In this document: piece after piece, positions 1-19,891 of the stretch
Position numbering within the stretch: position 1 is the stretch's first letter
Layout of the letters: each line of letters starts with the position of its first letter
Assembly: GCA_000091205.1 (NCBI GenBank)
Contig: AP006492.2
Length of the DNA: 64,000 nucleotides
From: Cyanidioschyzon merolae
Lineage: Eukaryota
Reading direction: 5' to 3' (one strand)
Made by a program: the position numbers and the translations under genes
Notes under the pieces: generated by a model
The model's database searches: none
The model's input: only the letters and a program-made list of their open reading frames with translations
Told to the model about the DNA's origin: nothing

Positions 1-1107
1 TTGAGCGGGGCGTTCGAGTCTCGGCGCCGAAAGTACGTGTACGCCAAACTGTTGCTGGCGGAATCACAACGTCGCAAGCAACGCCCTTGTGATTGCCCCA
101 GTATCTGGGGTTGCGTCAGCGAACCGAGCACCATACAGTGCATCCGGCTCTGTGCAACGCTCTTGTTCTCTATCTTGCTCAGCGTGCGCCTGCGCTCATG
201 ATACCTGTATGTAGTCTTGGAGGCCCGTCGATGCGCATCGCAGCAGCTCAATGCCTGGACCCGGTCGAGGCTCCATACAAGGATCGGAGGCAGCGCCTTT
301 CCGCACGAGCGTACGTCCAGCAGCGTGGGCTACCGTCGAGCGACTCGCTGACCAGTGATTTGCGTATCTGACTCATCGGAGAAGAGGGATGGTGCACGCT
401 TCTCGCATCGGTGCAAGTGAGGCCGTCGGCGACCCCAGCACCGGCTCATGTGCGTTTGCCAAAGCGTATCCGCGTGAGTCGTTCGTGGCGGCCCGTATAC
501 GTTGCGCGTGAAGCGTAGAAAGCACACGTCGCTGCTCGATACGGTGCATAGCGCATCGAGACGAGCCCAGACGCTGTCTTTCGACTTGTCGGTATGCCTG
601 CTGGCGTCATTGGTGCCCGGATCCCGACAATACCGCGCCCTGGAAGAGCTGAGCAGCTTCATCCGCTCTCCGTTCATGTCTCTCGCGCCGTCGTCCTGTT
701 TAGAGGTACGGCAACCGCGGTGACGCCTTTCAAACTGGAATCCACGCTCTCCACAACCTCGCTCCCTCTGCTTGCCTTGAACGGTCGCAAGAGCGAGCCT
801 GGTATCTCGAAACAGGTCTAGGTTTTACAACGTGCGTTCAGCTGGGTATGCCGTCGCTCTCCGTGGACCCTGTGAAACTCGAGTCCATCTCCTCGCTACA
901 GACGAGAAACCAGGAACGCGATGCACCAGTGTCCTCGCGAAGCTCCTGAAGCGCTGCCTACTTGTACGCGTGAACCAGCTGTACCTCATTGTAGCGCCCA
1001 TCCAGTACACGAATTTGTGTCTATGGTGATCGCTTGGGCCTCGATGTGGTACATGGAGCCACCATCGAACAGACGCTTCGTGTGTCGAGGGCGCTCGCAT
1101 ACAACCA

Positions 1108-1262
1108 GCTAGTCTGCTCTGTTCTGCTCTGTTGTGTTCTGCTCTGTTGTGTTCTGCTCTGCCCTGCTCTGCTCTGCTCTGCCCTGCTCTGCTCTGCTCT
1201 GCTCTGTTCTGCTCTGTTCTGCTCTGTTCTGCTCTGTTCTGCTCTGTTCTGCTCTGCTCTGA
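1108..1262. repeat. Compound microsatellite (CTGCTCTG/CTGTTCTG)n inside IR arm A
   Basis: Direct reading: ctgctctgttctgctctgttgtgttctg... for about 155 bp. It gives low-complexity ORFs in all frames ([11 protein letters not shown] / [10 protein letters not shown]). Confidence 0.85.
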
Positions 1263-1644
1263 CAAGCATGACTGGCGAATACGCGGAAGCGCAAGATATA
1301 ACGACGGCTGGCACACATCAGGTTCCGAACTTGCTGTGGGTATGACGTGTGTCGCTCCGAGGCCGACAACTACACGATGCGCTTCGACGACCTGAAGCGA
1401 CGCTCGCGCTCGATGCCACGTCTATGCTGTTTTGCATGGCGTCCTGTTTCTTACTTCTTTTATCTAAAAATAGGCCTTGACAATGGTTTCAGGCTGGGTT
1501 TTCGGCTCCGACGGGTTTCGCATCCGGTCCGTCCTCGTTCTCTGTGTCCAGTGCGTGCATCGCCTTGTTGCGGACTCGGCGCGGGCGCCTAGGTATGGTC
1601 GCGATACTCTGTGGCCGGTTTTTCCGGGGGATTCACTCATGCAA

Positions 1645-1662
1645 ACACACACACACACACAC
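1645..1662. repeat. (AC)9 dinucleotide microsatellite in IR arm A
   Basis: acacacacacacacacac read directly. Confidence 0.9.
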
Positions 1663-2571
1663 TGGGTGGACGGCGGTACTGAAACTCATCTTGTCTATGA
1701 ACGCATTTGCGATTCCTCAGGTACGTCCTCGTCTGCTTCTCAGTTGCGAGCATATCCACACGCCGCCGAGCGCCTTTCCGCACCCTCCCCTATAAACAAA
1801 ATCAGCGAAGCAGCAGCAAAGTCTCCTTGAGTGAGACGACCAACCTTATCTTCCCTCCTGTAATGAGCGTTCGCTGCCAAGTACGAAATCGATCGCGTGT
1901 CTTGTTCAACGCGCGACGGTCTCTTGTACATGTGCACGTTTTTTGCAGAGTCCATGCACGTCTCTTCATAGCCGTTTGCATCAGCGGTCCGGAAACGTCA
2001 TATCCTGCTGCTTCCTCGGTCGTATCTCTTAGAGAACGTACGCTGCGGAATGTTTCGACGAGGAGACGATCGTGCGGTTACACTTTGACATGTTGTGTTT
2101 TGGGCGCACAGCGTTCAGGATACGGTCGACGCGTACCATGGTGCAGTCACCTGCTCGCAGCAGAATCACTGACCCGCGCAACGAAACCCATTTTTCGCAA
2201 GCGAGCAGTAACGTCAGCAAGACTTTCCGTGAGCTCAGTCCATTCTACAGGACACTTGGCTTTTGTTGAATACCCGCAAGGAAAACGAAAAAAACAAAAA
2301 GACGTGCTGGCTAATGTGTGCCCGCATTGAAGACGCAGAGTTAACACCCAGATTGTTGTCGCGATAGTGCCTGCCCGAGACGAGCGCTCGTGCACTATGC
2401 GGCTGGAGCTGCGACTGTACCAAAGAGAGAGTGGAATTCGTTTACTCCTTCGACGATGGGTTTAAAGAGCACCGCTAGAAAACACAGTCGATCGGCCATG
2501 CAACACGATTCGCGCTGTGCTTGAACCAGACCAGGGTGCAAGGACGCTCAACCATTGGCAAACCGATCGTA

Positions 2572-16988: not shown

Positions 16989-17007
16989 GTGTGTGTGTGT
17001 GTGTGTT
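16989..17007. repeat. (GT)n microsatellite in IR arm B (mirror of the (AC)n at 1645)
   Basis: gtgtgtgtgtgtgtgtgtg read directly. Confidence 0.9.
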
Positions 17008-17394
17008 TGCATGAGTGAATCCCCCGGAAAAACCGGCCACAGAGTATCGCGACCATACCTAGGCGCCCGCGCCGAGTCCGCAACAAGTCGATGCACGCAC
17101 TGGATACAGAGAACGAGGACGGACCGGATGCGAAACCCGTCGGAGCCGAAAACCCAGCCTGAAACCATTGTCAAGGCCTATTTTTAGATAAAAGAAGTAA
17201 GAAACAGGACGCCATACAAAACAGCATAGACGTGGCATCGAGCGCGAGCGTCGCTTCAGGTCGTCGAAGCGCATCGTGTAGTTGTCGGCCTCGGAGCGAC
17301 ACACGTCATACCCACAGCAAGTTCGGAACCTGATGTGTGCCAGCCGTCGTTATATCTTGCGCTTCCGCGTATTCGCCAGTCATGCTTGTCAGAG

Positions 17395-17560
17395 CAGGGC
17401 AGAGCAGAGCAGAGCAGAACACAACAGAGCAGAGCAGAGCAGAGCAGAACAGAGCAGGGCAGAGCAGAGCAGAGCAGAGCAGAGCAGGGCAGAGCAGAGC
17501 AGAACACAACAGAGCAGAACACAACAGAGCAGAACAGAGCAGACTAGCTGGTTGTATGCG
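17395..17560. repeat. Compound microsatellite (CAGAGCAG/CAGAACAG)n in IR arm B (mirror of 1108..1262, different length)
   Basis: cagagcagagcagaacacaacagagcag... read directly, about 166 bp versus 155 bp in arm A. Confidence 0.85.
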
Positions 17561-19891
17561 AGCGCCCTCGACACACGAAGCGTCTGTTCGATGGTGGCTC
17601 CATGTACCACATCGAGGCCCAAGCGATCACCATAGACACAAATTCGTGTACTGGATGGGCGCTACAATGAGGTACAGCTGGTTCACGCGTACAAGTAGGC
17701 AGCGCTTCAGGAGCTTCGCGAGGACACTGGTGCATCGCGTTCCTGGTTTCTCGTCTGTAGCGAGGAGATGGACTCGAGTTTCACAGGGTCCACGGAGAGC
17801 GACGGCATACCCATCTGAACGCACGTTGTAAAACCTAGACCTGTTTCGAGATACCAGGCTCGCTCTTGCGACCGTTCAAGGCAAGCAGAGGGAGCGAGGT
17901 TGTGGAGAGCGTGGATTCCAGTTTGAAAGGCGTCACCGCGGTTGCCGTACCGCAAAACAGGACGACGGCGCGAGAGACATGAACGGAGAGCGGATGAAGC
18001 TGCTCAGCTCTTCCAGGGCGCGGTATTGTCGGGATCCGGGCACCAAAGACGCCAGCAGGCATACCGACAAGTCGAATGACAGCGTCTGGGCTCGTCTCGA
18101 TGCGCTATGCGCCGGTATCGAGCAGCGACGTGTGCTTTCTACGCTTCACGCGCAACGTATACGGGCCGCCACGAACGACTCACGCGGATACGCTTTGGCA
18201 AACGCACATGAGCCGGTGCTGGGGTCGCCGACGGCCTCACTTGCACCGATGCGAGAAGCGTGCACCATCCCTCTTCTCCGATGAGTCAGATACGCAAATC
18301 ACTGGTCAGCGAGTCGCTCGACGGTAGCCTACGCTGCTGGACGTACGCTCGTGCGGAAAGGCGCTGCCTCCGATCCTTGTATGGAGCCTCGACCGGGTCC
18401 AGGCATTGATCTGCTGCGATGCGCATCGATGGGCCTCCAAGACTACATACAGGTATCATGAGCGCAGGCGCACGCTGAGCCACATAGAGAACAAGAGCGT
18501 TGCACAGAGCGGGATGCACTGTATGGTGCTCGGTTCGCTGACGCAACCCCAGATACTGGGGCAATCACAAGGGCGTTGCTTGCGACGTTGTGATTCCGCC
18601 AGCAACAGTGTGGCGTACACGTACTTTCGGCGCCGAGACTCGAACGCCCCGCTCAACATATGGAGATATCTCGTGCATGCGGGGCGTCGAACGGCTTTGT
18701 ATCGAGCGAACGTTCGAGATCCTCGTTGAGGACTCGGTACATGCACTGTGCTGAAACGCTAGCGACTTTCGATGAAAAAAATCTGTGGTAAAGTCACAGG
18801 GCAGGGGATTCTCGCATGGACCACGGCACTGGTATGGGTACGGTTCAGCGATCCAGCAAGTCCAGCGTGCCCCATATACGCACAGCGAAAGCCTCTACTG
18901 CGTAAATGGTGAACGATCATTGTCGTCCACTATTCCATAGAACAGAGTATGCGGCAGCAACATCGATCCATGAAGTTGCCCGTTCTGCCCGGCGAATGCA
19001 TAGCATGTGCTCAGAGCAGAGCAGTCGACACACACCATCCTGTGATCTTGGAACGATGGGCGGCATTTTACGCTGCACAAACGCAACCGCGTCCTGGATA
19101 TCGCGCAATATCCCCCAACAACACCGAGACGAAATGCGAGTGCGTATGCTTAAAGCGGAAAGTCCGTTGCCAGCTGTAAACAGTGCTCTAGACGAGCGTC
19201 TAACCACTTGTTCTAGTCTAGTTGGATAGCAACGAGCCGCTTTTAGCGATTTTCGGCATATGCAGGGGCACTTTCGCGAGAGCGCAGCGGCAAGCCCCAA
19301 AAAGCGCCCATGCCTGTCCGAATGCGCTGGCAGCAGGCACCAAAGCGGGATTACGAGCGCTCGCCACACAACCCTGGTGCACGATGCGCGGCATCCGGAC
19401 TGGGGACGCTGCCTACCCGAGGCAGCGTCGGATGCGGATGTGGATTTCGCCCCTCTGCGAGTCACTGCTTCATCTGATGTGGCTGGTGCGCAGCACAATC
19501 GTCTAGGTCGCGCTTGTCTGCAAGCGTTTGCAAGCTGGATACAAGGTGTTCACCTTTTCGTGCAAAAAAATCTTGCTGTTTCTGGCGCTATCTTCCAGTA
19601 TAGATATCCGGCGAGGAAGGAGCTCTCGGTAGGATGTCATCTTGGACATCAGCTACACACCAGTGAGAGAGGGATGGCGGGCAATTTCGGCCAACAACGT
19701 CATCCATGTCGTCCTTGAGCGGACCCAGGAATCACGAACCGTCGGCACAGAGCAAATACGGCTGGCTATCAACAAGGCCTCTCAAAGCCTCCCCAGAGAC
19801 TCACGAGGAGCTCTGTGATCGGCCCGCAGTCGGGAGCATCCTTTGCATTGCCGCGATGTGGACGCGCTTGTCAACGGCAAGTCCCAAATTC

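Follow-up and report, generated by a model that had tools for sequence, protein, structure and literature searches.

A 14-kb gene block on chromosome 10 of Cyanidioschyzon merolae is inverted and bracketed by 2.6-kb inverted repeats

The inverted repeat on chromosome 10

A long inverted repeat on chromosome 10 of the red alga Cyanidioschyzon merolae 10D encloses a single-copy block of 14.05 kb (2300-16350) with eight genes (BAM80244-BAM80251), and this block is inverted compared to related genera. The window, as we call the stretch of DNA that was analysed, comprises 64 kb (contig AP006492.2), and its left edge cuts through one of the two repeat arms. The visible part of arm A (1-2299) pairs with the reverse complement of positions 16351-18656 in arm B, with 98.3% identity over 2306 columns (BLAST, E = 0), 32 mismatches and 4 gap openings. 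In a base-by-base comparison, the differences resolve into 19 transitions, 13 transversions and 7 indel columns, and the segment 1860-2287 of arm A has no difference at all from its counterpart in arm B. The original prediction had recognised the repeat and placed its inner breakpoints at about 2297 and about 16350, close to where they were now located (2299/2300 and 16350/16351). It had estimated the identity at about 97%, which proved slightly too low, and the arms at 2.3 kb or more.

To the left of the window, the outer part of arm A and its flank were recovered from metagenome contigs L016 and L026, and metagenome contigs were scanned with a 28-mer from the outer arm part. Contig L016 comprises unique sequence of the left flank, arm A, RPL10 and RPL15, in this order. 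For 294 bp to the left of the window edge it matches the far side of arm B (18657-18950) and then diverges abruptly, and contigs L014 and L017 terminate exactly where this homology stops. Each arm is therefore about 2.6 kb long. Arm B is completely contained in the window (16351-18953), its inner edge being defined by BLAST and its outer boundary, at about 18950-18953, by the alignment of L016 with the window and by the ends of L014 and L017. Thus, it does extend past 18656, as had been suspected. The leftward extension that had been suggested as a check yielded the outer end of arm A and sharp junctions on both sides: CCAAGTG forms the end of the left flank next to arm A, the right flank next to arm B begins with GCAGCAAC, and there is no target-site duplication at the outer arm ends.

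According to contig L026, the outer end of arm A is separated by 2013 bp of unique spacer from the start of a gene coding for an F-box/SPOC protein. This spacer (125-2137 of L026) carries a dispersed repeat of about 250 bp which is about 70% identical to the intergenic positions 24637-24883, 55614-55833, 48992-49107 and 13391-13547 of the window. The arms have no such relatives. No further copy of an arm occurs in the remaining 59 kb of the window, and in the metagenome collection that was scanned, matches to the 28-mer from the arm were confined to the present locus.

Two microsatellites had been taken as evidence for slippage between the arms. An array described as CTGYTCTG with 155 and 166 bp is, according to TRF, a pentanucleotide array (CTGYT)n. 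It measures 149 bp at 1113-1261 in arm A and, by TRF and alignment, 154 bp at 17390-17543 in arm B, which makes the latter longer by one unit. The dinucleotide tract, for which different lengths had been reported, is (AC)9 in arm A (1645-1662) and has a partner (GT)9 of equal length in arm B (16989-17006; TRF).

As arm A runs off the window, an assembly error was considered, in which one arm would stem from a mis-join or from duplication of a contig end, but there was no support for it. Assemblies made independently from more than 15 metagenome samples, with about 99% identity to the window, reproduce the two arms together with all inner and outer junctions, and an artefact is rejected. The repeat does interrupt short-read assemblies at four precise positions. 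Contigs L001-L006 (14.0-14.5 kb) span the single-copy block alone and stop at the inner arm boundaries, while L036-L039 stop at the inner arm boundary when coming from the NOB1 side.

Genes of the block and content of the arms

The block is terminated by RPL10 and by a sulfite reductase gene. RPL10 (BAM80244, 2572-3216, minus strand) has its stop codon 273 bp from the inner end of arm A. It is followed by RPL15 (BAM80245, 3715-4332, plus strand), by an open reading frame (ORF) for MBF1 (4351-4986, minus strand), and by Sec13 (BAM80247, 6151-8430, minus strand), which has a long low-complexity tail. As metagenome gene calls for MBF1 have 137 residues, its true start is likely to be near 4764. 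Then follow a TMCO1/EMC3-like ORF (9295-10035, plus strand), a DUF427 ORF (10235-11047, minus strand), which is annotated as the 232-residue protein BAM80249, a RuvX/YqgF-like gene (11509-12066, plus strand) and ferredoxin-dependent sulfite reductase SiR (BAM80251, 13921-16116, plus strand), with its stop codon 235 bp from the inner end of arm B. RPL10, RPL15, Sec13, the DUF427 protein and SiR were identified by exact protein matches, as was NOB1 next to the block. All seven genes that had been named in the original prediction are present, but the RuvX-like gene, which is supported by Pfam (RuvX, E = 3.8e-10) and by orthologues in relatives, had been missed and raises the count to eight. The right flanking gene is NOB1 (BAM80252, 19892-21421, minus strand), which adjoins RPL10 in relatives and SiR in strain 10D. 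On the left, the F-box gene of 10D is BAM80243, the accession directly before that of RPL10.

Two observations on individual genes may be added. The C-terminal extension of Sec13 has about 400 residues and is rich in proline, alanine and glutamine; the protein has 758-764 residues among strains, 695 in Cyanidiococcus and 584 in Cyanidium. A 279-residue ORF (11163-12002, minus strand) is called in many metagenome assemblies. As it overlaps the RuvX-like gene on the opposite strand and matches no protein family, it is probably spurious.

The arms appear to be non-coding, as had been predicted. The BAM accessions are consecutive across both arms, and thus no protein is annotated in either of them. 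Nine ORFs of 81-207 residues in or adjacent to the arms gave no Pfam match above noise, and no transposase was found among them. No tRNAs are encoded in the arms. A comparison of the whole window with Rfam at gathering score was negative, as was one of 16100-19900 with E values up to 1. An exact-protein look-up of the arm ORFs 330-677 (minus strand) and 1483-1830 (plus strand) gave no match, and for a 63-residue arm ORF (921-1112) such matches were limited to two contigs of the set analysed here.

Inverted repeats also surround centromeres of the Schizosaccharomyces pombe and Candida tropicalis type, in which the core between the repeats is free of genes. An inverted-repeat centromere was rejected for the present locus, as the core between the arms holds eight conserved genes.

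Gene order in related genera

Orthologous regions were obtained via RPL10, sulfite reductase and the F-box protein. In C. merolae 10D, the genes for Tic22, PAC2, a cyclin and the F-box protein are followed by arm A, the block from RPL10 to SiR, arm B and NOB1. In Cyanidiococcus yangmingshanensis (GCA_026122185.1 and GCA_013995675.1; L018, L024), the same genes Tic22-PAC2-cyclin-F-box are followed by SiR-RuvX-DUF427-TMCO1-Sec13-MBF1-RPL15-RPL10 and then by NOB1 and a gene for a protein of 1445 residues. A second related lineage (GCA_041825655.1 and two JGI contigs; L020, L021, L025) has the order of Cyanidiococcus. For Cyanidium caldarium (GCA_026184775.1; L027), the block from RPL10 to SiR adjoins the F-box gene at the SiR end, the NOB1 side lying outside the view. 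The reversal is directly visible in BLAST comparisons. Positions 1-10645 of L018 and L020 align to the minus strand of the window, running from 14.9 kb to 2.57 kb, and the 10 kb that follow align to its plus strand from 20 to 30 kb. In the C. merolae-type contig L026, the genes of the left flank (F-box, cyclin, PAC2, Tic22) are collinear with those of the relatives.

Cyanidioschyzon and Cyanidiococcus have been treated as sister species in synteny work, with Cyanidium being compared as the third genus of the Cyanidiales (PMC9812998). On this basis, and in line with the general background on these algae, Cyanidium is taken as the outgroup. As SiR is next to the F-box gene in the outgroup Cyanidium, the order in C. 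merolae is the derived one. The eight-gene block of 14 kb was thus inverted in the C. merolae lineage after its split from Cyanidiococcus. The arms of the repeat coincide exactly with both breakpoints of this inversion, and its polarity is fixed by the outgroup. The original prediction had connected the repeat with inversion, and this part of it is borne out by the comparison with relatives and the outgroup.

The comparison with related genomes, also proposed beforehand, further showed that the block is not inverted in Cyanidiococcus and the second lineage and that, within about 30 kb around it, these relatives lack any inverted repeat on the kb scale. Their two flanking spacers have no similarity to each other. 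The arm gave no blastn match (word size 7, E up to 0.01) to the RPL10-NOB1 and SiR-F-box spacers of the relatives, and with the same settings the spacers of the two relatives could likewise not be aligned to each other.

The second related lineage (GCA_041825655.1) contains a dispersed element of about 168 bp, with copies of 70-82% identity (L020 at 12184-12350, 12504-12657 and 8046-8212; L025 at 16847-17012). One inverted pair of this element is located in the RPL10-NOB1 spacer of GCA_041825655.1, the counterpart of one of the C. merolae breakpoints.

Long inverted ends around a gene block are also what would be expected for a giant DNA transposon with captured host genes, the arms being its terminal inverted repeats, and this had been raised as a possibility for the present locus. 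The resemblance is confined to the geometry. The outer ends (CCAAGTG on the left, GCAGCAAC on the right) lack a target-site duplication, neither a transposase nor any other Pfam domain was detected in the arm ORFs tested, and there is no second copy in the window. In addition, Cyanidiococcus has the block in an identical internal order and likewise flanked by F-box and NOB1, and the internal order and the SiR/F-box junction are also common to Cyanidium. By synteny, this is the ancestral locus. With target-site duplication, transposase, copy number and synteny all speaking against it, the giant transposon was rejected as having a negligible probability.

Inversions between Cyanidioschyzon and Cyanidiococcus have been mentioned in general terms only (Cho et al. 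2023, PMC9812998). Full-text literature searches yielded no description of the present repeat or of the present inversion.

Exchange between the arms

To compare arms across genomes, 14 arm sequences were aligned, comprising both 10D arms as well as environmental sequences, of which one is an arm A and eleven are copies of arm B. Not a single interior site is fixed between A and B copies, and the arms do not cluster by their position. At two sites (17858 and 17870), a base that is specific for 10D is found in both of its arms. Arm A of 10D differs by 0.6% from some environmental B arms, compared to 1.0% from arm B of its own genome. With regard to the dinucleotide tract, L007 shares (AC)9 with the two 10D arms, and the remaining environmental arms that were inspected have (AC)8. 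A change in tract length is therefore common to both arms of one genome.

At least five substitutions are private to arm B of 10D (16870, 16878, 16935, 17954 and 18111), being absent from arm A of 10D and from all environmental arms. Arm A of 10D has only two private changes (paired with arm B positions 17814 and 18330). Changes thus accumulate unevenly in the two copies.

The pattern of shared and strain-specific variants indicates gene conversion between the arms, although mixing of the two arms in short-read metagenome contigs could contribute to it. With gene conversion, the substitution difference of 1.0-1.4% between the 10D arms may underestimate the age of the duplication.

Orientation of the block

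The original prediction had pointed out that long inverted repeats can mediate flip-flop inversion. If this process were active at the locus, cells or populations would contain the block in both orientations, as is the case for plastid inverted repeats. The orientation of the reference was found in each of the six environmental contigs that span a complete arm. Arm B is crossed from NOB1 to SiR by five contigs from five samples (L007, L013, L033, L034 and L035), arm A from the F-box flank to RPL10 by one (L016). Alternative junctions were found neither among these six contigs nor in the 10D reference; these are consensus assemblies from limited sampling, and a minor isomer could escape. In a telomere-to-telomere comparison between strains 10D and MS1 Ha3, which diverge by 0.71%, a single inversion and a single reciprocal translocation were reported; the rearrangements shown there in magnified view are on chromosomes 3 and 19, not 10 (PMC13353863).

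The concerted evolution of the arms does suggest ongoing recombination, and a minor isomer would be missed in consensus contigs. In addition, many short-read assemblies break exactly at the arm boundaries, but this carries little weight since any repeat would cause such breaks. Given the single order in all arm-crossing contigs and in 10D, and with the strain comparison magnifying only rearrangements on chromosomes 3 and 19, we consider active flip-flop to be very unlikely, so that the prediction does not hold in this respect. The repeat may be a product of the inversion rather than its cause.

A further possibility, which we also judge to be improbable, comes in two versions. The arms may be an active substrate, kept alike by frequent exchange, with the ancestral orientation being present in a minority of cells or strains. 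Alternatively, the 2.6-kb spacer may carry a functional element under selection that preserves both copies, for example an origin of replication, a chromatin boundary or a transcript that escaped annotation. If the arms were indeed an active substrate, this would be a nuclear flip-flop system comparable to plastid inverted repeats, by which two ribosomal protein genes are moved.

Other features of the window

A tandem repeat at 22919-23319 consists of 3.9 copies of a 103-bp unit with 98% identity. Its copy number varies between the environmental contigs, being lower in L015 and higher in L030-L032, which makes it a variable minisatellite. Young tandem arrays, whose copies are 95-98% identical, are also found at three further positions, 50489-50845 (93-bp unit), 58757-58975 (111 bp) and 61456-61662 (54 bp). 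The lowest G+C content of the window occurs within 49000-52000, with 0.45 at 51-52 kb compared to about 0.56 elsewhere; this region adjoins the 93-bp array.

Origin of the inversion and of the repeat

We consider it moderately probable that the arms represent the breakpoint scar of a fixed inversion, which arose via staggered breaks that duplicated a spacer segment of 2.6 kb, and that the two copies were later subject to gene conversion. Starting from the ancestral order F-box, SiR to RPL10, NOB1, one of the two breakpoints would have been cut in a staggered manner, with the two cuts being about 2.6 kb apart within an intergenic spacer. The overhangs would then have been filled in and the ends rejoined in inverted order via end joining. 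The outcome would be one copy of the spacer segment at each end of the block, in opposite orientations. Subsequent gene conversion would keep the copies about 98-99% alike, with the orientation staying fixed. As the stop codons of SiR and RPL10 precede the breaks by 235-273 bp, no gene was damaged. We infer that duplication and inversion occurred as a single event. Staggered breaks are preferred because they explain both the inversion and the duplication of apparently unique non-coding DNA in one event.

Geometry alone is compatible with duplication of either spacer. Had the spacer between RPL10 and NOB1 been duplicated, the ancestral spacers would have had about 3.8 kb (RPL10-NOB1) and about 2.2 kb (SiR-F-box). 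With duplication of the spacer between SiR and the F-box gene, they would have had about 4.9 kb (SiR-F-box) and about 1.2 kb (RPL10-NOB1).

As the main alternative, the order of events may have been reversed. An inverted copy of a 2.6-kb intergenic segment may first have arisen at a distance of 14 kb, and a single crossover between the copies (non-allelic homologous recombination, NAHR) may later have flipped the block, which then became fixed. Inversion mediated by inverted repeats is the classical model (discussed in PMC1885836), and the arms are long and similar enough for recombination, with shared and strain-specific variants pointing to real exchange between them. This course of events requires two rare events instead of one. 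In addition, the repeat is absent from the relatives examined, though these are too distant to be decisive, and the arm is not dispersed within the window. No genome has been seen that combines the repeat with the ancestral order, as all six arm-crossing contigs have the derived one. We thus regard a repeat-first origin as possible but rather doubtful.

Several points nevertheless weigh against an origin from staggered breaks. The resulting structure is the same as that expected from recombination between pre-existing repeats, and therefore the two origins cannot be told apart from a single genome. With respect to the relatives, non-coding sequence has reached saturation, and for this reason neither a single-copy ancestral spacer nor its identity could be shown. 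The search for further arm copies covered 64 kb of a genome of 16.5 Mb, and repeats make up 12.7% of the C. merolae genome (Cho et al., PMC9812998). The evidence for gene conversion shows that the arms recombine, which makes an origin by recombination feasible as well. Part of that evidence is itself weakened, since arm sequences from short-read metagenome contigs may mix both arms.

Comparison with known systems

Plastid inverted repeats resemble the present structure in having two inverted copies around a single-copy region and in showing concerted evolution. The C. merolae locus differs from them by being nuclear, by its gene-free arms, and by the absence of a second isomer from the six arm-crossing contigs. 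Long inverted ends are shared with Foldback/Galileo-like and other large DNA transposons. However, the C. merolae structure is single-copy, lacks a target-site duplication and a transposase, and its interior is an orthologous block of housekeeping genes at the ancestral position.

Closer parallels exist to inversions which arise by NAHR between inverted low-copy repeats, as described for human (PMC3961182). There, too, highly similar repeats on the kb scale bracket a segment, and the arms exchange. Such inversions are typically recurrent or polymorphic, with the repeats being present on both arrangements, whereas only one orientation is seen for C. merolae and the relatives with non-inverted order lack the repeat.

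For C. merolae, this is an inversion in a model red alga, resolved to the base pair and polarised by an outgroup, with a plausible mechanism that requires only one step. In practical terms, the repeat is a potential site of ectopic recombination when this region of chromosome 10 is engineered. This kind of feature is already well known, and the present case is a new example which opens no new question.

The best documented equivalents are from Drosophila. Among 29 fixed inversions in the Drosophila melanogaster group, 17 have non-repetitive sequence duplicated in inverted orientation at their breakpoints, and these duplications have been explained by staggered breaks, fill-in and end joining, including a variant where only one breakpoint is staggered (Ranz et al. 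2007, PMC1885836). As in these cases, a segment is inverted relative to an outgroup, and two inverted copies of an otherwise unique sequence, with uniqueness being judged here within the 64-kb window, are found exactly at the breakpoints. There is neither a transposon nor a target-site duplication, and the copies diverge by substitutions and small indels. Differences from Drosophila are the organism, a red alga with a very compact genome, and the duplicated segment, which is purely intergenic in C. merolae while many of the Drosophila cases include genes. In addition, the C. merolae copies show evidence for gene conversion, and the single-copy ancestral segment is not demonstrable, as the non-coding DNA of the relatives no longer aligns. 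The C. merolae locus suggests that inverted duplications at inversion breakpoints, of which Drosophila offers the best documented cases, are also present in a free-living eukaryote whose genome is among the most compact.

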